A stretch of 64,000 nt of DNA from IMG/VR virus record IMGVR_UViG_3300049988_000286, positions 96,001 to 160,000 of that record; one strand, 5' to 3'. This document shows, piece after piece, positions 2,144-62,544 of this stretch (position 1 is its first letter; every line of letters begins with the position of its first letter). This DNA comes from a virus. Its lineage: Duplodnaviria; Caudoviricetes. The notes under the pieces are model-generated. The model saw only the letters and a list, made by a program, of their open reading frames with translations. It ran no database searches and was not told the origin of the DNA. Both the position numbers and the translations under genes were made by a program.

Positions 2144-2171
2144 GGGGGAGCGGACGGCCCGCTCCCCCTTT
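2144..2171. terminator. GC-rich hairpin between convergent genes
   Basis: GGGGGAGCGG/CCGCTCCCCC 10-bp stem followed by TTT, between rIIB and cca. Confidence 0.7.
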
Positions 2172-3303
2172 ACACACCAAGCATGTCGGTTTTGCCCAGT
2201 GTGTAATCCGATTCGATCCAGCGGCGGCGCGCATCCTTCATCCAGCGGCCGATCTCGACACCGGTGATGCCGCGCTCGATCAGTTCATTGCCCGAGACCG
2301 GGAAAGCAGGTGCCTCCCACGTCTCGATAAAGCGTCGGGTCAGGTCATCACCCCGCGTGGCGAGCAGCGCCGTGATGATCTCCACCGGGATACCTTCTAC
2401 GATATCGCGCTTCGCATCTCCGATCCCATATGGGGTCAAGAGTTTACCGACGATGAACGCGGCGGTCTTCTGCTCGACTTTGCTCCACTTCCACCGCTGA
2501 CCCAGCGCGAGCACCTCCTCACCACCATAGACAGCCATCAGCGCGGCGGGATTGCGTGAAGTCAGCCGAGCCTTGTCGAGAGCCGAGATGTCACCCTCCG
2601 GTAGACCAATCACGCGGCCCACGCCCGAGATGTGGATGAGTTTCAGCACCCTGTCAGCGTTCGGTCCCGCGATGATCTTCGAAATCTCCGCCCAGACACG
2701 CTCGACGCTGATCTGACGCAGATTGGGAGCCGCACGGGTGATCGCCCGCATCGCATCATAATCATTCAGGGGATCACCGAAGCGACCGTAGAAGCGGAAC
2801 CAGCGCAGCGCGCGAAGGTAATCCTCCGCGAGTCGCTCATCGGCATCGCCGACAAAGCGCACCCGTCCCGCTTCTACATCCGCGACACCACCGTGGGGAT
2901 CGAACATCGTGCCATCGAGCGCCATCGCGATGGCGTTCATGGTCAGGTCACGACGCCGCAGATCGTCACGCAGATCAAGGGTGTACTCGACGGTTGCGTG
3001 CCGACCATCGGTCTCGCGATCGATACGGTAGGTAGTGATCTCGTAGGGGATGCGATCGATCACGACAGTGATGGTGCCGTGGGCGAGCCCCGTCGCAACA
3101 TAGTTGTAGCCATGCTGCTCGTAGAGGGCGATCTGCTGATCCGGCGTCGCCGATGTGGTGAGATCGATGTCCTTGGGCGTGATGCCCAGAATGGAATCAC
3201 GTACGCAACCCCCGACAAGCCAAAGCTCGTATCCGGCTTCGACAAACCGCGCGTGCAGTTCATCAATTTCGGGCGGGAGGTTGAGAATATTGCGGTGGCT
3301 CAT
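2170..3303 (-). CDS. cca: CCA-adding tRNA nucleotidyltransferase / poly(A) polymerase family
   Basis: VGGCVRD, DIDL, EITTYR, DLRRRDLTMNAIA, RFVGDADERLAEDYLRALRWFRF class II NTase motifs. Confidence 0.92.
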   Translation of the reverse strand: MSHRNILNLPPEIDELHARFVEAGYELWLVGGCVRDSILGITPKDIDLTTSATPDQQIALYEQHGYNYVATGLAHGTITVVIDRIPYEITTYRIDRETDGRHATVEYTLDLRDDLRRRDLTMNAIAMALDGTMFDPHGGVADVEAGRVRFVGDADERLAEDYLRALRWFRFYGRFGDPLNDYDAMRAITRAAPNLRQISVERVWAEISKIIAGPNADRVLKLIHISGVGRVIGLPEGDISALDKARLTSRNPAALMAVYGGEEVLALGQRWKWSKVEQKTAAFIVGKLLTPYGIGDAKRDIVEGIPVEIITALLATRGDDLTRRFIETWEAPAFPVSGNELIERGITGVEIGRWMKDARRRWIESDYTLGKTDMLGV

Positions 3304-3347: not shown

Positions 3348-3962
3348 ATGCCCAAGAAGAAGACCCTCGCCTTCGATCGTAAAACTCGCCGTGCCCTCAA
3401 GGCATTCGTGCGCCCCCGCGCGCAAGATTGTGCGGATGAAAAGCCAATGCCAACCAAGACGAAGAAGCGTGTAAATTTCGGTAAGACAACCGCCGGAGCC
3501 AATTCAGCTACCAGCTATGAGCAAATCCTCTTGCCGCGTATCACCACGGACATCCTCGTCCACCCCTATGATACCCAGACCTTCGGGCACATGCACCTTA
3601 CGGTCTTCGCGCATCTATTCCCAAAGATCGACTACATTTTTGTGACGCGGCGCACAAAGGAGATCAGCAATGGCTATGAGGAGTCCTTGCAGCAGCTTGG
3701 CTTCTTCTCCGCGCGCGACTACGACACTTTCACGGATTGGCTAGAGGGATATCTGAAGAAATTCGGCCCGTGTACCGGTCATGCCTACCCGCCACCGATT
3801 GACGGTCACTACCCCTTCCATGCTCCGAGCAAGCCGCACAAGAGCTACGAGGAAGAGTGGCTGTGGATCATCGACAATTGCGCCGGTGAGGTCCGTCACG
3901 GTTCGAACCTCTGGCTGTTCGCCGACGAGGACGATGCTTGCCTATTCGAGTTGTGGAAGTGA
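3348..3962 (+). CDS. hypothetical protein with C-terminal W...F..EDDA..F.L domain
   Basis: 204-aa ORF ending WLFADEDDACLFELWK, the motif of the expanded small-protein family. Confidence 0.7.
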   Translation: MPKKKTLAFDRKTRRALKAFVRPRAQDCADEKPMPTKTKKRVNFGKTTAGANSATSYEQILLPRITTDILVHPYDTQTFGHMHLTVFAHLFPKIDYIFVTRRTKEISNGYEESLQQLGFFSARDYDTFTDWLEGYLKKFGPCTGHAYPPPIDGHYPFHAPSKPHKSYEEEWLWIIDNCAGEVRHGSNLWLFADEDDACLFELWK

Positions 3963-4453
3963 AGCCGGGGCTAGGGGCAGGTAGACGATCCTGCACGATG
4001 CTCATCGGACCGCCCGCGAGTGGAAAATCGACTTGGCGTGCGCGCGATACTACCAACGCAATCGTGATTAGTGGCGACGACATGATTGAGGAAGAGTGTC
4101 GGCGAACAGGGCTCACCTATGCGGAGGTCTTCCCCACGGTGTGCTTCAAGACACAGAAGCGTGCCCTGCATGAGCATTTCCAAGATGCGATCTTCAATCA
4201 CCGCAACATCATCATTGACCGTACCAATCTGACGATCAAGTCTCGGCGAAGCTTTCTCGCTTCGCTGCCACGCAGCTATGAGCGTATCGCGATTGTGTTC
4301 ACTGTCACGCCCTCGGTGTTGTTTGAACGATTGGAGCGACGCGGACAAGAGACTGGCAAGATCATCCCGCGCGAGGTAGTCGAGGACATGATGGCTCGAC
4401 TACAACCCCCAACGCGGGATGAGTTCGACACTATTGTAGAACTGAAAGACTAA
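3938..4453 (+). CDS. P-loop kinase (AAA_33 / polynucleotide-kinase-like)
   Basis: GPPASGKST Walker A, IIIDRTN, terminal PPTRDEFD. Confidence 0.8.
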   Translation: MPIRVVEVKPGLGAGRRSCTMLIGPPASGKSTWRARDTTNAIVISGDDMIEEECRRTGLTYAEVFPTVCFKTQKRALHEHFQDAIFNHRNIIIDRTNLTIKSRRSFLASLPRSYERIAIVFTVTPSVLFERLERRGQETGKIIPREVVEDMMARLQPPTRDEFDTIVELKD

Positions 4454-4599
4454 CGCCCTCGGTTAAGTGGCGATCTGTTCCTTCAACGCTAGCTTCTTCT
4501 TCTTGAGGGTTCGGATAAGCATCTCATCAGGCATGGGTCGCATCTCCTCTGCGCGAATTTCTTCATCGATCTTCGCGTGGCGATCGGCGAGGCTCGACT

Positions 4600-6231
4600 G
4601 TGATGCCATTGGTTGTCATCCCTTCCATGTCAGACCCGGTGTGGGCGAGATCGGGATATCTCGCCCACCCAGTGATGCAAAGATGCCTTGCATCATTTCC
4701 GAACTCTGCTATGTCGATGGTGTCATATCAGGGGTTCGCGATGTACTACGGTATCAAAATCGATTCAACGATCTACGTCACCGCCGCGACCGATCTGGCG
4801 GTCTTCCAAGAGATCGAGATCGATATCACCGATGGTGTGATCCGGGCCGAGCCCTGCGACATGGTGGAGATGTTCACGGAGCCGCTCCTCAAGGACTTCA
4901 CCCTCGCGCCCTTCGTCATCGAGTGCGCCACCGGCACGGTGGCTGATGCGGTCGCGTCGTCGAAAATGATCGCGATTCAATCACCGAGCGAAGCCCGCAA
5001 TACGCAGGACCACATGATGGAACTCGCGCGCCTCAAGGCCGAGTTCGATCAGCCCAAGGATCGCCGCACGCTCGCCGAAATCCATGGCTTCGACGACAAC
5101 GCGGACTGGGACAAACGCTCGGATGCCGAGAAGGAGGCGAGCCGCAAGCAGGACGAGAAGATGCGCGAGGTTCGTGCGGCGGGCGGTCTCACCAGCGGCA
5201 GCTTCGAGAGCACCGATACCGAGAACCTGAAAATCCACGGTGTCTCCACGGTTATCGATGCCGACAAGAACATCGTCTCGGCGTCGGTGAATGCGAGCAA
5301 GAACACCATGTCGCTCTATCGCCTGACCGTCGAGGGCGATGCCGTCGATTTCAACGCGATCTTCGACGACATCGGTCTGCCCGAGAATCGCGTCAAGGAA
5401 CAGGAAGCCAACCACGCGGTGATCAAGCTGCATGATCACCAGATCGAGCGGCTGACCGAGACGCTGGAACGCTTCCGGATGGTCTTCACGATTAACAAGG
5501 TCGGGGAAGGCGAGGAGGAGAGCGACGAGGGTGATCTCATCACCGGTCACGAGAACGTCAATGTCTTCTGGTCGGTTCAGATCGATCACCAGACCGTCTC
5601 CAAGGTGTCGCCGATCCTTCTCGCGGCCGGGCTGGATCAGAACCTCGTGGTGCTGATGCGCAATGCGGGACCGGGCTGCTGGTACGCTTTTCTGCGCGAG
5701 AGCGATGCCAAGGACGCCGCCGGGGCGCTCAAGGACGCCGGGATCGCGTCCGAGATCATTGCCGTCAACCGGCGTGGACAATCGATTTTCTCCGGCACTG
5801 GTGCGGGTGCGCGGATCGTCGATCGCCACGTCGAGGATGTCGTGGAGCCGCGTCCGTGGAACGATCGCGCCCATGAGATCGACGCGATGACCGACGAGCA
5901 GAAGGCGGAGTTGATGAAGGGGGTGAAGACCTCGGAGTTCATCGTCACCGTCGAGAGCACGCCGCGCTACAAGGCGCTGGTGCGCGTCCAGCCGGAAAGC
6001 TATTTCCGCGCGCATGATGCCTTGTGGGAGGCTCCCCTCCATATCGACAAGATGGTGGCGGAGCATGTCCTCAAGCCGATCGAGGGGGCGATCAACGCCT
6101 ATTCGTGCTCGGCTTTCGACGCCCAGTTGCTCAAGGACAATCTGATGCGCTGGGGGTTCATCGACTCGCTGTTGCTCCGGATGCACTTCAACGACCTTGA
6201 GTCGGAGATGAAGGCGGAGTTGTACTCCTGA
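4600..6231 (+). CDS. hypothetical protein (543 aa)
   Basis: Long ORF with strong GC3 codon bias; no recognised motif. Confidence 0.7.
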   Translation: MMPLVVIPSMSDPVWARSGYLAHPVMQRCLASFPNSAMSMVSYQGFAMYYGIKIDSTIYVTAATDLAVFQEIEIDITDGVIRAEPCDMVEMFTEPLLKDFTLAPFVIECATGTVADAVASSKMIAIQSPSEARNTQDHMMELARLKAEFDQPKDRRTLAEIHGFDDNADWDKRSDAEKEASRKQDEKMREVRAAGGLTSGSFESTDTENLKIHGVSTVIDADKNIVSASVNASKNTMSLYRLTVEGDAVDFNAIFDDIGLPENRVKEQEANHAVIKLHDHQIERLTETLERFRMVFTINKVGEGEEESDEGDLITGHENVNVFWSVQIDHQTVSKVSPILLAAGLDQNLVVLMRNAGPGCWYAFLRESDAKDAAGALKDAGIASEIIAVNRRGQSIFSGTGAGARIVDRHVEDVVEPRPWNDRAHEIDAMTDEQKAELMKGVKTSEFIVTVESTPRYKALVRVQPESYFRAHDALWEAPLHIDKMVAEHVLKPIEGAINAYSCSAFDAQLLKDNLMRWGFIDSLLLRMHFNDLESEMKAELYS

Positions 6232-6237
6232 CTTTGT

Positions 6238-6314
6238 GCTCGTGTGGCTGAAATGGGAATGGCTACGGACACTAAATCCGTAAGATGTGGGTTCGATCCC
6301 CACGGCGAGCGCCA
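6238..6314 (+). tRNA. tRNA with CUA (amber) anticodon, atypical A33 and G7:G66 mismatch
   Basis: Cloverleaf: acceptor GCTCGTG/GGCGAGC, anticodon stem ACGGA/TCCGT with loop CACTAAA, T arm GTGGG-TTCGATC-CCCAC, encoded CCA. Confidence 0.8.
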
Positions 6315-10350: not shown

Positions 10351-10425
10351 TGGTGGGAATACTCGGATTCGAACCGAGGACACACGGTTTTAGGGACCGC
10401 TGTTCTACCGCTGAACTATACTCCC
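10351..10425 (-). tRNA. tRNA with CUA (amber) anticodon, atypical C33
   Basis: GGGAGTA-TA-GTTC-AGCGGTA-GAAC-A-GCGGT-CCCTAAA-ACCGT-GTGTC-CTCGG-TTCGAAT-CCGAG-TATTCCC-A-CCA; clean cloverleaf. Confidence 0.9.
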
Positions 10426-18485: not shown

Positions 18486-18536
18486 ATCTCATAGTTCGCT
18501 CCTCGGATCAAGGCATCAGGGCGAACTAAATATCGG

Positions 18537-19124: not shown

Positions 19125-19136
19125 GTTAAATACTTG

Positions 19137-19727: not shown

Positions 19728-19750
19728 TTGGTCAATCGTCTAAATAGGTG

Positions 19751-20899: not shown

Positions 20900-21433
20900 A
20901 TGATCCCTGAACGCTTCCGCAAAGCCATCTACGAGCGCCACATCGCAGAGATGCAGATAGCGGAAGCGCGAGCCATCTACGAATCGACGATCTTCTCGCC
21001 CGAGCAGATCATCGACGAACTGCCCCGCGCGAAGTCGAGCCACATGTTCCTCATCCTCGATCAGCCACCCGATCGGAACAGGATCAAGCACGAGTTAACC
21101 AAAGAGATGATTAAGCGGATGCGTGAGCCATTCGCCAGAGCGGGCCTTCTACAAATCTGCCGTCCACGGCAGCGCACCGATGAGGAATGGGTGATTGAAG
21201 CCCGAGAGACTGAACTCTACTACCGTGCCACCAAGGCGGCAGAACAGGGCCTGTGGTGGGACGGCAGAGCCCAAACGCCTCATCACCCCTCGACGGTAAA
21301 GTGGTGGCGCGAGTACCTCGCGAGCGAACGCATCAGTCTCATGAAGATTCAAAAACTAGAGCGCAACGATCTCACTCAACCGTGCTTCGACGGCCTCGAC
21401 GTTGATGTCACCATGGCACGATTAAGGTTATAA
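20900..21433 (+). CDS. hypothetical protein
   Basis: 177-aa ORF. Confidence 0.6.
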   Translation: MIPERFRKAIYERHIAEMQIAEARAIYESTIFSPEQIIDELPRAKSSHMFLILDQPPDRNRIKHELTKEMIKRMREPFARAGLLQICRPRQRTDEEWVIEARETELYYRATKAAEQGLWWDGRAQTPHHPSTVKWWREYLASERISLMKIQKLERNDLTQPCFDGLDVDVTMARLRL

Positions 21434-21475
21434 ATCCGTGTTCGCATACGGTTAAGCCAATGTAAGGAATTTCTC

Positions 21476-21503
21476 TTGACCATGGAACCATTCCCGTTAT
21501 TAA
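21476..21503 (+). promoter_or_regulatory. sigma70-like promoter of the hfa/curli-like operon (TTGACC-N16-TATTAA)
   Basis: Lies in an AT-rich intergenic gap 65 nt upstream of ATG 21569. Confidence 0.45.
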
Positions 21504-21568
21504 CAGCCACGCACCAAGCGACGCGGGGTTCCCAGCGTGGCTGATGGTTCAATTCGGGGAAGAGACAC

Positions 21569-22075
21569 ATGAGGATGAGGATTTTGCTGGTGGGCGCAGC
21601 CGCGCTCGCCATGCCCGCGCTGGCGTCGGCGCAGACGCTCGGTGAAGAGGGCAGCTTCCAGTTTCGCAATCCGGCGGAGCGCAGCGTCGCGCTATCGATC
21701 GCGCAGACCATCGAGGCCAAGCAGGGCGGTCAGTTCGAGGCAGGTTTCGGCGGCTTCGGCGGCACCGGTGCGGGTTCGGGCGCGGGTGGTTCGGCGGCGA
21801 ACACCAACAACCTGTTCCAGTTCATCGATCAGTCGCAGATCACCAACAACTGCACGTCGAGCGGCGGCGTCGGCTCGCCGATGTCGTGCGGGGGTGGCGG
21901 CTCCAACACCGTGTCGGGCACCAATCTGACGAGTTCGGGTAACTCGAACAAGTCGGATACGACGCTCACGGGCAACACCGTCACCAATGCCAACAACACG
22001 GCGAACAACACGCTGAACCGTGGCGACGGCAACAACAACACGTCGACCACGACGACGAACACGGGTGGCCGCTAA
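21569..22075 (+). CDS. secreted Gly/Asn/Thr-rich protein in the HfaA position
   Basis: Signal peptide ending ASA-Q; low-complexity N/T/G tail; Cys pair; directly upstream of the CsgG/HfaB homolog. Confidence 0.65.
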   Translation: MRMRILLVGAAALAMPALASAQTLGEEGSFQFRNPAERSVALSIAQTIEAKQGGQFEAGFGGFGGTGAGSGAGGSAANTNNLFQFIDQSQITNNCTSSGGVGSPMSCGGGGSNTVSGTNLTSSGNSNKSDTTLTGNTVTNANNTANNTLNRGDGNNNTSTTTTNTGGR

Positions 22076-22076
22076 C

Positions 22077-22994
22077 ATGGCGCGCCTTTCTGCCATCATG
22101 GCCCTCGCCGCCATGCTCGCCCCGAGTGTCGCTGTGGCGCAGGATCAGCCGATCTCGCTCAAGCTGGGATCAGCGCCGACCAACAATATCTCGCCGATGC
22201 AACTGGGCATCCAGTGCGTGCGGACGCGCCTCGACCAGCAGTCGAAGACGATGCGCTTCTCGGTCGGCGAGGTCCGTGACTATACGGGCAAATTCTCGAA
22301 CGAGGCCAGCGAGGGCGGTTTCCGCATCACGCAGGGCGGCACCCTGATGGTCATCTCGGCGCTCGGCCAGCTTGGTCAGCACGTCGATCTCGTGGAGCGT
22401 TACGACACCCGTATCGCCGAACAGGAGATCGCGCTGGCGCGCAACCAACTCGTGCAGGATCAGGGAGCCGGTGGAGCGATCCTCCGTCCCCTGACTGCGG
22501 GACAGTATTACGGCTCTGACTACTACATCGTCGGGGGCGTGACGGAAGCGAATTACTCCATCAGCAGCGGTGGCGCGGAAGTCCGTGTCATGGGTGTCGG
22601 TGGTGGTGCTCGCTACTATTCGATGAACGTCGCCGCCGACCTTCGGCTCGTCGATGCCCGAACCCTTCGGGTGATCAAGACGGTCTCGGTCCAGAAGCAG
22701 TTCGTCGGACACGAGGTCAAGGGCGATACTTTCCGATTCTTCGGAACGACGCTCATTGACATTAATGCCGGGAAGAAGAAGAACGAGCCCCTCCAGCTTG
22801 GTGTTCGCGCCACGCTCGAATACGGCACGCTCGATCTCATTTCGGCGGCGTTCGGGCAGGAATTCACTCCCTGTCAGGCACATGCCGACTACGGGTACAC
22901 GGCTGGGGTTCAGCAGCGTCTCGTGAAGGCTAGTCGGGGAGGGGCGACACAACTCGCGGCCTTCGCTGCTGGGTCGGCCAAGACCACGAAGTAA
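22077..22994 (+). CDS. hfaB: CsgG/HfaB-family outer-membrane secretion pore
   Basis: VGEVRDYTGK, TQGGTLMVISAL, LVERYD, YIVGGVTE, VAADLRLVDARTLRV, QKQFVG, EPLQLGVR. Confidence 0.85.
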   Translation: MARLSAIMALAAMLAPSVAVAQDQPISLKLGSAPTNNISPMQLGIQCVRTRLDQQSKTMRFSVGEVRDYTGKFSNEASEGGFRITQGGTLMVISALGQLGQHVDLVERYDTRIAEQEIALARNQLVQDQGAGGAILRPLTAGQYYGSDYYIVGGVTEANYSISSGGAEVRVMGVGGGARYYSMNVAADLRLVDARTLRVIKTVSVQKQFVGHEVKGDTFRFFGTTLIDINAGKKKNEPLQLGVRATLEYGTLDLISAAFGQEFTPCQAHADYGYTAGVQQRLVKASRGGATQLAAFAAGSAKTTK

Positions 22995-23056
22995 GTGGCG
23001 ACACCGTTACAGGTCAGGTATGGTGCTTGACTTGGATTTAATTACAGGGAATTTCA

Positions 23057-24484
23057 ATGCGTAATCTTCTTCTCGGCGCTTCGGCGCTGATCGCAATCGC
23101 GGTTGCGGGTTCGGCTTCGGCGCAGAACATCTCGGTCCAGAGCAATCAGACCAACAACGCTACTGTCACCGCGAACACCGAGCTTCGCAACATCGAAGTC
23201 GGCACTCGTCCCACCACCACGACTTTCGTCGGCGGCAACCTGACCGGCACCGCGCTCGCGGTCGGCAACCTGATCCAGACTTCGGCTCCCATCGGTCAGG
23301 GCTTCTCGGAGGCTGCATCGAACAACGGCGGTGTCCTGTCGCCGCAGAACAACAGCGGCACGATCACTGCCAACGTCGGTTTCGGCTCCGGCGTCACTGC
23401 TGGCGTGACCAACGTAGCGGCCACCGCAATCGCCAACAACGCCCTTCTGTCGGGTGTGCAGGTACAGAACGCGGGTAGCCGTGTTGACGGCCAGTTCAAC
23501 AACGGTGCGGTCACGGCGAACACCACGCTCACCGGCGGTGGTTACAATGTCGGTAACCTGACTGCTGGATCGCTGGCGATCGGCAACAACTTCGTCGCAA
23601 CGGGTTCGGGTGCAGTCTACCTCGGCGCTGGTGCTGGCACCAACGGCGGTGCCCTCACCCAGACGAATCAGGCGGCGATCTCCGCTAACACGGTGTTCGT
23701 CAACGGCGGCAACTCGGGCGCTCTCGTCGCCAATGCCAATGCCATCGGTAACGCGTTCTCGCCGTCTGCCCCGGTGGTCAGCGTCGCAGTCACCCAGAAC
23801 AACAGCGGTCCGCAGAACGCCTACCTCGATGTGAAGCAGGGTTCGCAGTCCCTGAACGCTTCGGGTTCGGCAGTCGGCAACCTCATCGCGCCGACCGGTG
23901 GTTCGTTCAACGGGGTCAACCTCGTCCAGAGCAACTCGGCGGGTCAGACCTCGACGGTCACGGTGGGCAACACGCTTGCGGTGTTCAACGGCGGCAACAC
24001 CAACGTTAATTCGCTGGCTGTCGGCAACGCGATCCAGATTTCGCAGACCGGCGCTGTCGGGCTGGCAACCGGTTCGCAGACGAACACCGGGCCGCAGTCG
24101 GCGAGCGTCTCCGTTCCCGGTGGTGCAAGCTTCACGGGCGGGTCGGCCTTCGCTTCACAGGCGTTCGGTAACCTGATCGCGGTGAACACCGGTTCGACCT
24201 TCGGATCGGGCATTCCGCAGAACAATGCGGCGACTGTGACGGCATCCACGCGTATCGATACCGGTGCGTTCGGCCCCAGCACCACCGCCTCGTCGTTCGC
24301 GGCTGGCAACATCCTTCAGGTTCAGGCCGGTGGATCGGTTGAGGGCATCAACGGTTCTGCTAACCAGCTTAACACCGGGGCGATCAATTCGCTCACCTCG
24401 GTCACCGGTGGCCTGTTTGCGGGTAACCTCGCGGCATCGTCGCAGTCGATCGGTAACGTGACCAGCGTCACGATCGGCCGCTAA
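23057..24484 (+). CDS. HfaD/curlin-like secreted repeat protein
   Basis: Signal peptide; about 9 repeats each with QxN(S/T/N)(G/A)xxxA and (S/A)xA(V/I)GN motifs. Confidence 0.7.
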   Translation: MRNLLLGASALIAIAVAGSASAQNISVQSNQTNNATVTANTELRNIEVGTRPTTTTFVGGNLTGTALAVGNLIQTSAPIGQGFSEAASNNGGVLSPQNNSGTITANVGFGSGVTAGVTNVAATAIANNALLSGVQVQNAGSRVDGQFNNGAVTANTTLTGGGYNVGNLTAGSLAIGNNFVATGSGAVYLGAGAGTNGGALTQTNQAAISANTVFVNGGNSGALVANANAIGNAFSPSAPVVSVAVTQNNSGPQNAYLDVKQGSQSLNASGSAVGNLIAPTGGSFNGVNLVQSNSAGQTSTVTVGNTLAVFNGGNTNVNSLAVGNAIQISQTGAVGLATGSQTNTGPQSASVSVPGGASFTGGSAFASQAFGNLIAVNTGSTFGSGIPQNNAATVTASTRIDTGAFGPSTTASSFAAGNILQVQAGGSVEGINGSANQLNTGAINSLTSVTGGLFAGNLAASSQSIGNVTSVTIGR

Positions 24485-24512
24485 CCCTCGCCCACACGGG
24501 CTAGGACCAAGG

Positions 24513-24545
24513 AGAGGGATCGGACCAACATCCGGTCCCTCTTTT
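24513..24545 (+). terminator. Rho-independent terminator after the repeat protein
   Basis: AGAGGGATCGGA-CCAACA-TCCGGTCCCTCT followed by TTT. Confidence 0.75.
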
Positions 24546-24556
24546 ACCAAGGAAAA

Positions 24557-24955
24557 GTGATGCTCCTGATCGCCCTGATGTTGCAAGCCACTGCTGTCGG
24601 CGAGACCGTCTCCCCCACGGTGGTGCGGGTCCGCGAAGTGCATCGAGTGGGTCAGCGCCTCACGGTCGATTACGAGATCGAGAATCGTTCAAAGACCCGC
24701 ATCCCGGTGCCGGTGCCTCCCGTGACGATCACCGACCCGGCGGGACGAAGCCTTCCCGTGGGGAAGCCCAGTGAGGGTGATGCTCCCAAGAGCGTCAAGA
24801 CCGAGATCGAACCCGGCCTCACGGTCGGTCAGTCGGTCTCCGTTGATCTCGGGCAGAACATCACCGCGACCGTCTATGGCATGAACCCGAAGACCTACAA
24901 CGAATCCACATGGTATTTCGTCGTCGGTGGGGACCGGGTGCCCTTCAGTTTCTAA
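24557..24955 (+). CDS. secreted Ig-like (DUF4352-like) protein
   Basis: Short hydrophobic leader; LTVDYEIENRS, TITDPAG, EIEPG beta-sandwich pattern. Confidence 0.5.
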   Translation: MMLLIALMLQATAVGETVSPTVVRVREVHRVGQRLTVDYEIENRSKTRIPVPVPPVTITDPAGRSLPVGKPSEGDAPKSVKTEIEPGLTVGQSVSVDLGQNITATVYGMNPKTYNESTWYFVVGGDRVPFSF

Positions 24956-25050
24956 TACGCGCCCACGGGCGTGTTAGAGACCGTCAAGTCTCTTCCCCAA
25001 TAGGTGCGACGGTCTTGGAAGAGCCGGAGGAGACTCCGGCTCTTTTCGTG

Positions 25051-28365: not shown

Positions 28366-28427
28366 GTTGATCTCCTTGCGCCGCCTATACGATTAATCAC
28401 CACGAACTGTCAACGCCTAAATATCGC

Positions 28428-43919: not shown

Positions 43920-46028
43920 ATGGAAGAAGAATATCCCGAGTTCCTCCACCAGACGCTATCGAATGGAACCACTATGGAAGACGTTTTTCATATCAAGACT
44001 GCGATGAATGTCCTTGCGACGTGGAAGGGCAGCTTCTCCGACGAATCGTTCCTGCGACTCCTCATTGATCGCTTCCCCGGCCAGATCGCTGGTCCGACCG
44101 GCTGGGTGAACGAGATCAAGCGCCGCGAGAAAGAGTATTTCGACGCTAACCCCGACGCTTCTTCGGTCTTCGTGCCTTATGCGAAGTTCCTCACAGAGAC
44201 CGACATCGCCACGATCATCATCGATCCCGTCCTCGACTTCGTTGAGGGTGCTCGCGGTCCGATGCCCATCACTACCACGTGCCGCACCCTCGCAACCGTG
44301 CTCGAATTGTCCGAGCCGGAAACGATTTTGCTCCAACTCGCCATCGACATGAAGAGCATGAACTATCCCTACGAGGCCTTCTACCCTCGTATGCTCAACA
44401 TCTTCGACAATCGTGAGAACGGATTGGCGGCGATCCTCGGCCTCACCCGCGAACAGGTCCGACAAGCGACGACCGGATTCTTGGTCAAGAGCGGCTTCAT
44501 CGTGCCCACCGCCTATCCCGAGGGCTATTACCAGATCGCTGCCGTGTTCGAGGACAGCTTCGACAATGCCAACATCGAGATCGGCGACCTCGACGATCTT
44601 CTCTTCCCGCAGACGATCTCCACCGATCTCACCGTGGAGGATTATGCCCACGTGGAGGTCGATGTCACTCGCACCGAGAAGATCGTCAACAACGCGCTTT
44701 CGTCGCGCGTGCCGGGCACCAACATCCTCCTGTGGGGACCGGCGGGGACGGGTAAAACCGAACTAGCCCTTGCCTTGGCGGCGAAGAACGGCTGGAAGCT
44801 GAAGTCGATCGGCGACATCTCGGCAAGCGACGATGGTGAGAAATCGCGTGCACAGCGGTTGGGAAGCCTCAAGATCGCTCTGAAGTTGTTCAACACCGAC
44901 ACCAACACGGTGCTGCTCTTCGATGAGATCGAGGATTTGTTCAAGGTTGATAACAACGCTACCTTCTCCAAGGCATTCATCAACCGGATCATCGAGACCA
45001 CCACGGTGCCGATCATCTGGACGACCAACTCGCTCCTCGCCTTGGGGTCGCCGGTGCTGCGCCGCATGACCTACAACATCCACTGCACCACACCCTCGAA
45101 GAAGGCCCGGCGCGCTATGTGGGAGAAGTATGCGACCAACTACGGGGTCAAGCTGGACGCCGACACCAAGACGATGCTCGACGCGTTCGACATCTCTCCG
45201 GCACTGATCCGCAATTCGATGCGGGTGACCGCATCGGCACTCGCCGCCGACGCAGAGGCGAGCCAGAAGGACGTGCGCGAGATCGTCTCCTCGCTCGATC
45301 GTCTCGTCAACTTCGGCGAGAAGCGTAAGTTCGATCTTGGTGAGCCCGAAGACCCGTTCTACGACGCCTCATGTGCCAACACGGAGATCGACCTCGATAA
45401 CTTCACCGCGCGCCTCATGGATGCCAAACCGGGCTTCTCCCTGTGCCTCTACGGTCCCCCCGGAACCGGCAAGTCCAAGTATGGGCGCTATCTCGCTGCC
45501 AAGATGGGCAAGCAGGTGCTCTTCAAGCGCGCCAGCGATCTTCAGTCGATGTGGGTCGGTGAATGCGAGAAGAACATCGCCCGCGCCTTCGAGGAGGCTC
45601 GTGAGGACGGCAAGGTGTTGATCATCGACGAGGGCGATACCTTCCTGCGCAATCGCGAGCGCGCCAAACAGTCGTGGGAGGTTAGTCAGGTCAACGAGAT
45701 GCTCTCCCAGATGGAGTCGCATCCCCAGCCCTTCGTTCTGACCACGAACCTGATGGACGACCTCGACCCCGCATCGCTGCGTCGCTTCACCTTCAAGATG
45801 AAGTTCGACTTCATGACGCCCGCACAAGCATCACGCCTGTTCGAGCGCTACTTCAAGGTCAGGGCACCGGCGGCGATCATGCGTAACCATATCCTCGCGC
45901 CCGGCGACTTCGCCAACGTGAAGAAGCAGGTGGAGATTCTGGGCCTTCACGACGCCGATGCGATTTACAAGATCGTCATGGACGAGTGCGCGCAGAAGCC
46001 GAATTACCGCCGCGATATCGGTTTCTGA
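43920..46028 (+). CDS. tandem double AAA+ ATPase
   Basis: GPAGTGKT/LLFDE and GPPGTGKS/LIIDEGD, SRH DPASLRRF. Confidence 0.9.
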   Translation: MEEEYPEFLHQTLSNGTTMEDVFHIKTAMNVLATWKGSFSDESFLRLLIDRFPGQIAGPTGWVNEIKRREKEYFDANPDASSVFVPYAKFLTETDIATIIIDPVLDFVEGARGPMPITTTCRTLATVLELSEPETILLQLAIDMKSMNYPYEAFYPRMLNIFDNRENGLAAILGLTREQVRQATTGFLVKSGFIVPTAYPEGYYQIAAVFEDSFDNANIEIGDLDDLLFPQTISTDLTVEDYAHVEVDVTRTEKIVNNALSSRVPGTNILLWGPAGTGKTELALALAAKNGWKLKSIGDISASDDGEKSRAQRLGSLKIALKLFNTDTNTVLLFDEIEDLFKVDNNATFSKAFINRIIETTTVPIIWTTNSLLALGSPVLRRMTYNIHCTTPSKKARRAMWEKYATNYGVKLDADTKTMLDAFDISPALIRNSMRVTASALAADAEASQKDVREIVSSLDRLVNFGEKRKFDLGEPEDPFYDASCANTEIDLDNFTARLMDAKPGFSLCLYGPPGTGKSKYGRYLAAKMGKQVLFKRASDLQSMWVGECEKNIARAFEEAREDGKVLIIDEGDTFLRNRERAKQSWEVSQVNEMLSQMESHPQPFVLTTNLMDDLDPASLRRFTFKMKFDFMTPAQASRLFERYFKVRAPAAIMRNHILAPGDFANVKKQVEILGLHDADAIYKIVMDECAQKPNYRRDIGF

Positions 46029-53915: not shown

Positions 53916-53930
53916 TCCGCTAAATACGGG

Positions 53931-60430: not shown

Positions 60431-60768
60431 GATATCGAATTCGCTGCTTCGTTGGAGACGGCAATAGAGAAGGCATCCGAGTAGGCGTGACGGACACGCT
60501 TCTCATCGGCGGGATCGTAGAAGGTCGCGCTCAAATCATCCCAGCCCGCCCTACCGCACAGTCGGCGAAGTCGGAACAACTGTCGCGCAACCTTGATCGA
60601 CCCCGCTTCGAACGGTTTGATCGCCCGCAGGAAATAGGGCGTTTGGAGAGTCAGGGTATGGCGATCCCACCCCAGATTCGGCATGTTGGCGAAGATGAAG
60701 TCGAGGGCTTCGCGGCCGATCTCGACTTCATCCCCGCTACGCTTCAGGCTAAACTTGGCTACCTTCAT
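60427..60768 (-). CDS. hypothetical protein
   Basis: ATG 60768 after GAGGGA, overlapping the LysRS 3' end. Confidence 0.55.
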   Translation of the reverse strand: MKVAKFSLKRSGDEVEIGREALDFIFANMPNLGWDRHTLTLQTPYFLRAIKPFEAGSIKVARQLFRLRRLCGRAGWDDLSATFYDPADEKRVRHAYSDAFSIAVSNEAANSIS

Positions 60769-62476
60769 TGGCGATCCCTCGCAATAGATCAACTGTTTCT
60801 CTGATACCATACATGGCGGTGAAGGCACCGAAGCGCGGCCCCGACTCCTGACCCAAGACAGTCTCGTAGAGGGTCCGGAACCAATCACGCAAGCGTTCCT
60901 TGCCGAAATGTGCCTTCCCGACTTCGTAGACCTCGAACTGGATCATCTCCTCACCGGATCGTACACCCACCGCCCACTCGGGCAAGGGTTCAGCCAACAA
61001 CTGGAGGAACCGCGTGCCATCGGGATTAGCGCGATGCGCATAGGTGACATCCCCGAGAGACATACCATCAAGACGATCGGCGAGATCAAGCATCGCCACA
61101 CCTTCCTCCGGCGTGGGCAAGCGACGCGCCAGCTTCCCGGCGAGGAAATCCTCGTAATAGTTGAACGCGTGATCGATCAACCAACCGAGTTCCTCCTCCA
61201 AGGCATCGCTCATCACCGGAGTAACCCGCGACGCATAGGAGTGGAGACGCGCCTTACTGTCCACCGCCGCCGTCTGGGCGATGTTGAGCAGAAGCTGATA
61301 CGAGACCGGGAGACTTCCTTCGGGAACACCGGCGTGGACGTGGTGGACCGCATTGCCGAGACGCTGCTCCGAGGTCTGTTCCGCGTAGCGGCGACGCGCG
61401 TCGCGATAGTCCTCCTCCGCCTGAACGACGACGGCGGGATAGAGCTTCTTCGCCCGCTGCGGCTCACGGTAGAGGTAGGCGGCAAGGCTATCCTGCGAGC
61501 CGTAGCGGAGCCACTGCTCCATGGTGAGCCCATTGCCCTTCGACTTGCTGATCTTGCCGCCGTGCTCGTCGAGGAACATCTCGTAGATCATCGTCACCGG
61601 CGGGCGTCCCCCGATCGCACGGACGATCTTCGACGATAGCGTGACGCTATCGGTCAAGTCCTTGCCCGCCATCTCGTAATCGACGCCAAGGGCGAGCCAC
61701 CGCATCGCCCAGTCAGCCTTCCACTGACACTTCACGTTGCCGTTGCGAATGTCCCACATAACATCGCCAAGGCGATCGATGCCCCATTCAACGATCCGGA
61801 ACCGCCCGTCGTCCCGCACTGTCTTATACCAAGGCCCGCGACCGTAACTGACATCGATCACGCCAACATAGTTGGGGTTTGAGGTCACGCCCTCATTGAC
61901 GACATGGCCATCCTCCATGATGGGCATGAACGGCGAATAGGTGGCGCGACGCTCCTCCCCCAGCGTGGGAGCGATGATGCCGCGAACCTTGTCGTACTGG
62001 GCGTCGATGGCAAGCAGGGCGTCGTTGAAGCGGCCGGAGTTGTAGGTCTCCGTCGCAGACATGAACTCGTAGTCGAACCCGAAGCGATCGAGAAAGTCGC
62101 ACAGCATCGCGTTGTTGGCGTGAGCGAAACTCTGGTGGCGACCGCTGGGATCAGGGACGCGGGTGAGCGAGTATCCGAGCCACGGCGCGAGTGAGGCTTG
62201 TGCCTCCTCGGACAGATTTGTCGGGACACTCCGTAGAGCGTCCATGTCGTCGCTGAAGACGATCAGGCGCGTGCCGGCGTTGCGCGAGAAACCCATGAGG
62301 TCTTCGTAGGCACGGCGAACCATCGTGGTGCGCGCCACTTCGGCGAAGGTGCCGATGTGAGGCTGCCCCGATGGTCCATACCCGCACTCGAATACTACGT
62401 CGCGACCCGTGATGCCCCGCTGGGCGATCTTGCGGGCCTCAACGTACGGCCATGCCTTGCTCGACTGATAATCCAT
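60749..62476 (-). CDS. lysS: class I lysyl-tRNA synthetase
   Basis: AWPY.EA, CGYGPSGQPHIGT (HIGH-like), KCQWKADWAMRW, GKDL, KISKSKGN (KMSKS), GPRFG. Confidence 0.95.
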   Translation of the reverse strand: MDYQSSKAWPYVEARKIAQRGITGRDVVFECGYGPSGQPHIGTFAEVARTTMVRRAYEDLMGFSRNAGTRLIVFSDDMDALRSVPTNLSEEAQASLAPWLGYSLTRVPDPSGRHQSFAHANNAMLCDFLDRFGFDYEFMSATETYNSGRFNDALLAIDAQYDKVRGIIAPTLGEERRATYSPFMPIMEDGHVVNEGVTSNPNYVGVIDVSYGRGPWYKTVRDDGRFRIVEWGIDRLGDVMWDIRNGNVKCQWKADWAMRWLALGVDYEMAGKDLTDSVTLSSKIVRAIGGRPPVTMIYEMFLDEHGGKISKSKGNGLTMEQWLRYGSQDSLAAYLYREPQRAKKLYPAVVVQAEEDYRDARRRYAEQTSEQRLGNAVHHVHAGVPEGSLPVSYQLLLNIAQTAAVDSKARLHSYASRVTPVMSDALEEELGWLIDHAFNYYEDFLAGKLARRLPTPEEGVAMLDLADRLDGMSLGDVTYAHRANPDGTRFLQLLAEPLPEWAVGVRSGEEMIQFEVYEVGKAHFGKERLRDWFRTLYETVLGQESGPRFGAFTAMYGIRETVDLLRGIANEGSQV

Positions 62477-62544
62477 TAATGACTTCCCCAATCGACCTTG
62501 GCCTTCAAGTTCGGTATGCCACGACGCGGAGGGTATGGCAAGCG

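Follow-up and report, generated by a model that had tools for sequence, protein, structure and literature searches.

What would a large phage export through an outer-membrane channel of the CsgG family? Authors have found the csgG genes of phages puzzling, since no fibre subunits seemed to accompany them. The question is raised again by a cassette of four genes in a virus of the Caudoviricetes (IMG/VR record IMGVR_UViG_3300049988_000286, 499,572 bp), where the channel is accompanied by a recognisable cargo protein of the HfaD family and by a conserved partner gene. The 64,000-nucleotide stretch that was analysed, bases 96001-160000 of the record and referred to here as the window, is contained in full in a leaf-metagenome sequencing run. 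On balance the cassette is probably a secretion and assembly module of the CsgG/HfaB type (type VIII-like), maintained by phages, that would export a beta-solenoid protein to the surface of the infected cell. Its four open reading frames (ORFs) lie in the same orientation at 21569-24955 on the plus strand and are ORF1 (21569-22075, 168 residues), the channel gene (22077-22994, 305 residues), ORF3 (23057-24484, 475 residues) and ORF4 (24557-24955, 132 residues). Each has a hydrophobic, signal-like N-terminus, in agreement with a preliminary description of the sequence, which had placed a run of co-oriented genes for secreted proteins here. In ORF1, the channel and ORF3 these are classical signal-peptide-like segments ending ASA-Q, AVA-Q and ASA-Q, respectively.

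Homology shows the second gene to encode a full-length channel protein with the CsgG fold. Residues 72-275 of its 324-residue frame match the Pfam CsgG family (PF03783) at 63.2 bits against a cut-off of 20.8, the protein matches PHROG 20175 at 244 bits, and its best NCBIfam model is HfaB (NF037935) at 206.3 bits, bearing out the clear CsgG/HfaB homology that had been noticed before. The last score lies below the equivalog cut-off of 300 bits and the channel falls in a separate clade, both of which speak against calling it a true HfaB. Residues 58-261 align to the solved E. coli CsgG (E = 7e-14) over a core that includes both transmembrane hairpins, with 25% identity across the core. In a pairwise alignment of the constriction loop GKFSN-EASEGGF of the window lies opposite GQFKPYPASNF of E. 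coli; of the Tyr, Asn and Phe taken as the constriction residues of E. coli CsgG, the Phe, the last of them, is aligned and the Tyr and Asn are not. The N-terminus, read earlier as a type I signal peptide without a lipobox, is indeed of this kind, with AVA followed by QDQ and no Cys in the first 45 residues. Most homologs of the channel carry a lipobox-like Cys, and the nearest relatives, P0002 and L005, whose channels are 72-76% identical to that of the window, keep ...AC at residues 17-20. The Brevundimonas phage channels also retain the Cys. It is missing, though, from about 11 of the 39 channels of the phage clade, including those of CcrColossus and CcrPW, and loss of the lipid anchor therefore seems to be tolerated.

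The candidate cargo is the product of ORF3 (23057-24484), in which nine QxN motifs, at residues 28, 97, 146, 202, 247, 291, 341, 388 and 437, are spaced by 44-69 residues (mostly 44-56) and mark nine Q/N-ladder repeats of about 47 residues, much as had been counted by eye. There are also seven to nine AxGN motifs, seven of them exact where 1.3 would be expected from shuffled sequences. The NCBIfam HfaD model (NF037936) matches ORF3 weakly, with 23.3 bits (E = 3.4e-5) under a cut-off of 100 bits, and the ortholog in L005 reaches 39.4 bits. The database record of ORF3's own protein (P0129) carries a precomputed match to Pfam HfaD (PF27277). Jackhmmer links the two in both directions: searches begun with canonical HfaD reach the phage ORF3 proteins, and those begun from the phage side arrive at canonical HfaD. 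In an alignment of 122 sequences near-invariant Q and N residues alternate at periodic positions over the whole length of the ORF3 family, which comprises 747 representative clusters at E <= 0.001. The tie to HfaD goes beyond composition, since the HfaD profile finds no match in the equally A/G/S/T/N-rich proteins that other bacterial HfaB-like loci encode downstream. Taken together these searches show ORF3 to belong to the HfaD family, as the label HfaD-like for the third gene had anticipated.

A beta-solenoid, suggested at the outset beside an amyloid, is also the fold predicted for this protein. AlphaFold2 (AF2), given the 122-row alignment, returned a confident model that is all-beta and in which the signal peptide is disordered (pLDDT 87.1, pTM 0.88; from the single sequence the pLDDT was 35). 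The best match of the model in VIA-align is the curli subunit CsgA (8c50; Z 15.8, rmsd 8.6 Å). The Vag8 autotransporter passenger matches with Z 15.2 and an rmsd of 3.0 Å, and the other top matches are the secretion domains of EtpA, HMW1 and HxuA, which are beta-helices of two-partner secretion; the top matches together span Z 14-16. Phage tailspike beta-helices stand lower in the ranking, at Z 10-12. Foldseek searches of the model against the PDB, BFVD and AFDB clusters gave nothing significant, and neither ORF1 nor ORF3 matches a Pfam family at E <= 0.1, hence no match to the curlin repeat. On the strength of the model ORF3 is predicted to be a beta-solenoid. As a separate observation, when canonical HfaA (32 sequences) was compared with the repeats of HfaD (AxAIGN ... 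QxNxGxxxA), hhalign gave probabilities of 64-68% for two of the repeats and of about 20% for another two, and in sequence HfaA looks like a single HfaD-type repeat unit.

The first gene, ORF1 (21569-22075), encodes a small protein that is rich in Gly, Thr and Asn, as had been described, with 17% Gly, 13% Thr, 12% Asn, 11% Ala and 11% Ser. The further description of it as HfaA-like did not survive. NCBIfam HfaA (NF037934) does not match ORF1 at E <= 0.1, a hidden Markov model (HMM) of HfaA built here has no match in the whole phage genome, and an hhalign value of 93% with HfaA was due entirely to the signal peptide, falling to 13% once signal peptides were removed. The database record of ORF1 holds no Pfam family, HfaA (PF27294) included. 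Of two other identities that were tried, one or two HfaD-type repeats were rejected, with 0.3% in hhalign against the 64-68% of canonical HfaA, and CsgF found no support from models, the ORF1 family giving 0.2% against 29 CsgF sequences. The CsgF family (PF10614) has no match in the genome at E <= 10.

A short motif nevertheless links ORF1 with CsgF. The mature protein carries SFQFRNPAE about seven residues past the predicted cleavage site (residues 22-30; window 21632-21658) and mature E. coli CsgF starts GTMTFQFRNPNF, so that both have the hexapeptide FQFRNP, about equally far from the signal peptide. This hexapeptide occurs in one ORF only of the 500-kb genome, and the ORF1 proteins of the phage clade retain the pattern aromatic-x-F-R-x-P. 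The FGGNP core that is conserved across CsgF proteins is absent from ORF1. In curli the N-terminus of CsgF docks inside CsgG. The link through FQFRNP is a lead, not a finding.

Judged by its sequence, ORF1 is a member of an unnamed family whose genes, in bacteria that lack a stalk, are companions of OmpA-fused HfaB-like genes. Its members share a conserved motif with the consensus GENxAWQF, a single Cys that is invariant and a tail rich in QxNxG. In about 70 of the bacterial loci fetched the family's gene immediately precedes an HfaB-like gene, the hosts being Sphingomonadaceae, Variovorax, Limnohabitans, Castellaniella and others. The pairing of an ORF1-family gene with an HfaB-like gene was seen across Alpha-, Beta- and Gammaproteobacteria (80 loci, L010-L089), where the channel is usually fused to OmpA. 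The genes downstream in these bacterial loci are variable and often encode A/G/S/T-rich secreted proteins of about 1000 residues; these look HfaD-like by eye and were rejected as such for want of a match to the HfaD profile.

The cassette is rare among phages. A tblastn search over 50,697 phage records matched 16, and the HfaB-type gene was found there only in CcrColossus, CcrPW and five jumbo phages of Brevundimonas pondensis (Kabachok, Marchewka, Domovoi, Papperlapapp and Bambus), with more distant CsgG-type genes in the pelagimyophage HTVC008M and the Methylophilales phage Melnitz. The order ORF1-channel-ORF3 is the same in CcrColossus (gp241-243), CcrPW and Kabachok, and the same trio occurs on a 561-kb IMG/VR contig and on metagenomic contigs of 69, 122 and 114 kb with jumbo-phage-like gene content. 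Alignment-based scans recovered loci where the first scans, with single sequences, had given no match. In a tree of 174 channel sequences, the root of which sits on a very long outgroup branch and is unreliable, the phage and metagenome sequences form one clade of 39 rows (SH-aLRT 96) that holds no sequence from a named bacterial genome, and 77 bacterial HfaB-like proteins (the OmpA-fused group) and 31 canonical HfaB proteins of Caulobacterales form other clades. The comparison with host hfa loci that the preliminary description had called for thus separates the phage channels, that of the window included, from the HfaB of Caulobacterales hfaABD loci. By tblastx the window resembles the other phage loci only within the borders of the cassette, and the best channel match in a reference bacterial genome is 51% identical. 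The clade of its own, the similarity that ends at the borders and the modest bacterial match all point to an old, phage-maintained module, which may move between phages. Four Caulobacterales genomes (L138-L141) have a second, divergent trio beside canonical hfaABD, composed of an hfaA-like gene, an hfaB-like gene (about 404 codons) and an hfaD-like gene (315-335 codons).

The flanking signals suggest how the cassette could be expressed. The 135-nucleotide spacer on its 5' side contains a sigma70-like promoter candidate, TTGACC-N16-TATTAA (21476-21503, plus strand), read from the sequence. The closest relative, L005, has TTGACG-N15-GATTAA at the equivalent place in a spacer that has otherwise diverged. 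A consensus promoter scanner made no call at the site, since the second hexamer ends in A, and the sigma70-like promoter proposed earlier holds only as a conserved near-consensus match. The companion claim, that the promoter is not of the TAAATA type, stands as made: no TAAATA precedes ORF1, and a near match, TATAAATC, is present at 21429-21436. Elsewhere in the window TAAATA occurs at 17 sites where 4.7 are expected (none of 100 shuffles reached 17), for example at 18527-18532, 19127-19132, 19741-19746, 28418-28423 and 53921-53926. Because several of the sites end 1-4 nucleotides ahead of an ORF's first in-frame start codon, TAAATA is, on this sequence pattern, a phage promoter or start-site motif.

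The ATG of the channel gene, at 22077, lies two bases past the stop codon of ORF1. An intrinsic-terminator-like hairpin occupies the gap between ORF3 and ORF4 (24510-24545, plus strand; 15-bp stem, -24.2 kcal/mol, z -4.8, then UUUU), where a terminator had been noted, and a second one closes the unit (25018-25050, plus strand, with the hairpin at 25018-25045; 12-bp stem, -22.2 kcal/mol, z -5.1, then UUUUCG). With a promoter-like site upstream and strong U-run hairpins after ORF3 and ORF4, the cassette looks like an autonomous transcription unit of three or four genes. Each of its components is single-copy in the 500-kb genome. At third codon positions the GC content (GC3) of the cassette genes is somewhat high, 0.76-0.86; among the long ORFs of the genome (mean 0.685, standard deviation 0.076) this places the four in the 85th-99th percentile.

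ORF4 (24557-24955), beyond the first hairpin, has an ortholog (41% identical, at the same position) only in L005. It matches nothing in Pfam, NCBIfam or PHROG, and its Atlas model, of low confidence (pLDDT 0.61), has a TM score of 0.6 to DUF4352-like Ig-like sandwiches. Of the Ig-like secreted protein that had been described after the terminator, the position is therefore correct and the Ig-like beta-sandwich possible. ORF4 was rejected as HfaE, as it has no Cys and none of the conserved HfaE motifs PHPASQV, CNERSLLR and DGGVG (bioRxiv 10.1101/2022.07.20.500906).

Near the cassette of L005 there are a gene for an MHYT-GGDEF-EAL protein (3472-5499 of that contig, minus strand) and a release-factor gene. 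The window itself also encodes two tRNAs with a CUA anticodon (6238-6314, plus strand; 10351-10425, minus strand), which are amber readers and are called tRNA-Pyl by ARAGORN. Further genes are those for a class I lysyl-tRNA synthetase (60749-62491, minus strand), an enzyme of the CCA-adding/poly(A) polymerase family (2170-3303, minus strand) and a double AAA ATPase (43920-46028, plus strand); lysyl-tRNA synthetases, CCA-adding enzymes and AAA ATPases are typical huge-phage cargo.

How such a module might work can be sketched from these parts. The products would cross the inner membrane by the Sec pathway and the channel would oligomerise in the outer membrane of the host, from where it could pass the solenoid protein, and perhaps ORF1 as well, on to the infected cell's surface. 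By analogy with HfaA and HfaD of Caulobacter the exported proteins would then form a stable multimer or fibre at that surface. For ORF1, a part as nucleator or accessory to the channel seems likelier than one as a subunit of the HfaA type. A surface structure is favoured over a bare pore because a gene for the cargo is present. As for what the phage gains, it may be speculated that the altered surface promotes adhesion or aggregation of cells during infection, or masks receptors against superinfection.

Several points weigh against export of a solenoid by this cassette. As regards expression, localisation and phenotype, the proposal draws on sequence and structural models, and the signal peptides of all four products were assessed by eye only; the N-terminus of ORF4 is short and hydrophobic with no basic residue. 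The channel lacks the lipid anchor reported for HfaB, and in structural work on CsgG the non-lipidated protein reportedly remains soluble. ORF1 has no profile-level similarity to HfaA, to the HfaD repeats or to CsgF, and its role is a guess. With only 16 of 50,697 phage records matched, the cassette is on this count also dispensable for the basic phage cycle.

A bolder form of the proposal is that jumbo phages of Alphaproteobacteria have a hybrid type VIII-like lineage of their own, with an often anchorless channel, a Q/N-ladder solenoid of the HfaD type and an ORF1 whose N-terminal aromatic-x-F-R-x-P peptide docks in the channel in the manner of CsgF in CsgG, together building a fibre or coat specified by the phage. 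This is possible, if rather doubtful as a whole. Were it true, the coat could glue infected cells to their neighbours or to surfaces, or block superinfection.

Among the alternatives to export, the one that survives best is that the channel serves lysis or permeabilisation of the outer membrane, a gated pore that times release, with the repeat proteins secondary. This follows a published hypothesis for the CsgG and CsgF of Melnitz (PMC9004378), and a channel that is not lipidated might behave unlike a normal secretin. It is an unlikely explanation, however, of a gene that keeps such company: in all seven phage-clade loci whose flanks were checked, genes of the ORF1 and HfaD families lie beside the channel, unlike the cargo-poor sets of pelagiphages. 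Nor was a lysis-type family recognised by Pfam or PHROG in the six neighbouring ORFs tested, and the unit has terminators of its own.

An Hfa-like system of the host could instead be the target of the cassette, with phage subunits mixing with or displacing host parts; the outcome would be no new structure but the dispersal of infected cells that shed or alter their adhesin. Those hosts of the phage clade that are in culture belong to the Caulobacterales and have hfaABD, loci with ORF1-family and HfaB-like genes are common in Alphaproteobacteria of the phyllosphere type (Sphingomonas), a leaf metagenome is the source of the window, and the window's channel has lost a lipobox that the nearest relatives kept. 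With no more than about 33-40% identity to canonical HfaB and a clade to themselves, however, the phage channels could not obviously form mixed oligomers with host proteins, and this account is quite improbable.

It is very improbable that ORF3, and perhaps ORF1, are fibre or spike proteins of the virion and that the channel gene is unrelated to them. The ORF3 model does resemble phage tailspike beta-helices (Z 10-12), but these rank under the adhesin and curli solenoids, and no PHROG structural family matches. Virions are put together in the cytoplasm, whereas every product of the cassette starts with a signal-like N-terminus. Apart from the few records matched by tblastn, the phage collection lacks the cassette, and the linkage to the channel gene has been kept across distant phages. 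Scarcely credible, finally, is a fragment of host DNA captured very recently or misassembled into the contig, the latter being a doubt raised in the preliminary description that the tree and the tblastx borders exclude on sequence grounds: the raised GC3 of the cassette would fit either, but the channel belongs to a phage and phage-like clade apart from the bacterial HfaB-like and canonical HfaB proteins, is at best 51% identical to a reference bacterial protein and has the same cassette around it within unrelated flanks in other jumbo phages, and the flanks in the window are phage-like in gene content.

Several known systems can be set beside the cassette. The curli system of E. coli (CsgG, CsgF and CsgE with CsgA and CsgB; type VIII) has a channel of the same fold family and a Q/N-ladder beta-solenoid as cargo, and it is CsgA that ORF3 matches best in structure (Z 15.8). 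Curlin repeats are about 20 residues long. ORF3 differs in its repeat of about 47 residues, in lacking a Pfam curlin-repeat match and in its rmsd of 8.6 Å to CsgA. That phages carry csgG is already known, from the discussion of csgG and csgF in pelagimyophages and Melnitz (PMC9004378) and from the annotation of CcrColossus. HTVC008M and Melnitz, too, are large phages with a channel of the CsgG family, one that is absent from the host's own set or differs from it. Their channels are of the CsgG type, 29-30% identical to that of the window and paired with CsgF, and their CsgG and CsgF were described as being without fibre subunits; uptake of macromolecules, fibre-based 'sibling capture' and control of lysis have been put forward as roles (PMC9004378). 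The set in the window differs in having an HfaB-type channel and an HfaD-family cargo.

The bacterial loci that combine an ORF1-family gene with an OmpA-fused HfaB-like gene share the family of the first gene with the phage cassette, and their channels are 41-51% identical to that of the window. These channels mostly have a C-terminal OmpA domain and a lipobox, the downstream genes fall outside the HfaD family and the clade is separate.

Among the closest systems is the holdfast anchor of Caulobacter crescentus and Hirschia baltica, HfaA-HfaB-HfaD (with HfaE), which has the same order of a small secreted protein, a CsgG-like channel and a large repeat protein. There HfaB, a lipoprotein (bioRxiv 10.1101/2022.07.20.500906) with CsgG-like density at the outer membrane, is needed in Caulobacter for HfaA and HfaD to reach the surface, and there they assemble into stable multimers (PMC6707917; bioRxiv 10.1101/2022.07.20.500906). 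HfaB is the best NCBIfam model of the phage channel, and ORF3 shares the HfaD family and its periodic Q/N repeat. The differences are that the system is phage-encoded, that the channel, which is no lipoprotein, scores below the HfaB cut-off and groups in a clade apart, that the first gene is not hfaA and its family occurs also in non-stalked bacteria, and that ORF4 is without the HfaE motifs.

The nearest counterparts are the trios of CcrColossus, CcrPW and the Brevundimonas phages, which are 37-42% (ORF1), about 50-57% (channel) and about 32% (repeat protein) identical to that of the window. Their repeat proteins are shorter, at 309-355 residues, and there is no ORF4; in CcrColossus an annotated terminator directly follows gp243. 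The records of these phages describe the genes only as 'CsgG-like', 'hfaB' or 'hypothetical', gp241-243 go unmentioned in the CcrColossus genome paper, and a literature search found no paper on the complete trio in phages. The earlier view that no complete system had been characterised thus agrees with the literature found, with the qualification that the channel gene was already annotated in the CcrColossus, CcrPW and Brevundimonas records. Cultured phages have the same cassette, and their hosts, Caulobacter crescentus and Brevundimonas pondensis, are both tractable, which makes its role directly testable. The analysis also shows Hfa-like trios in at least three combinations of parts: canonical, OmpA-fused bacterial and phage.

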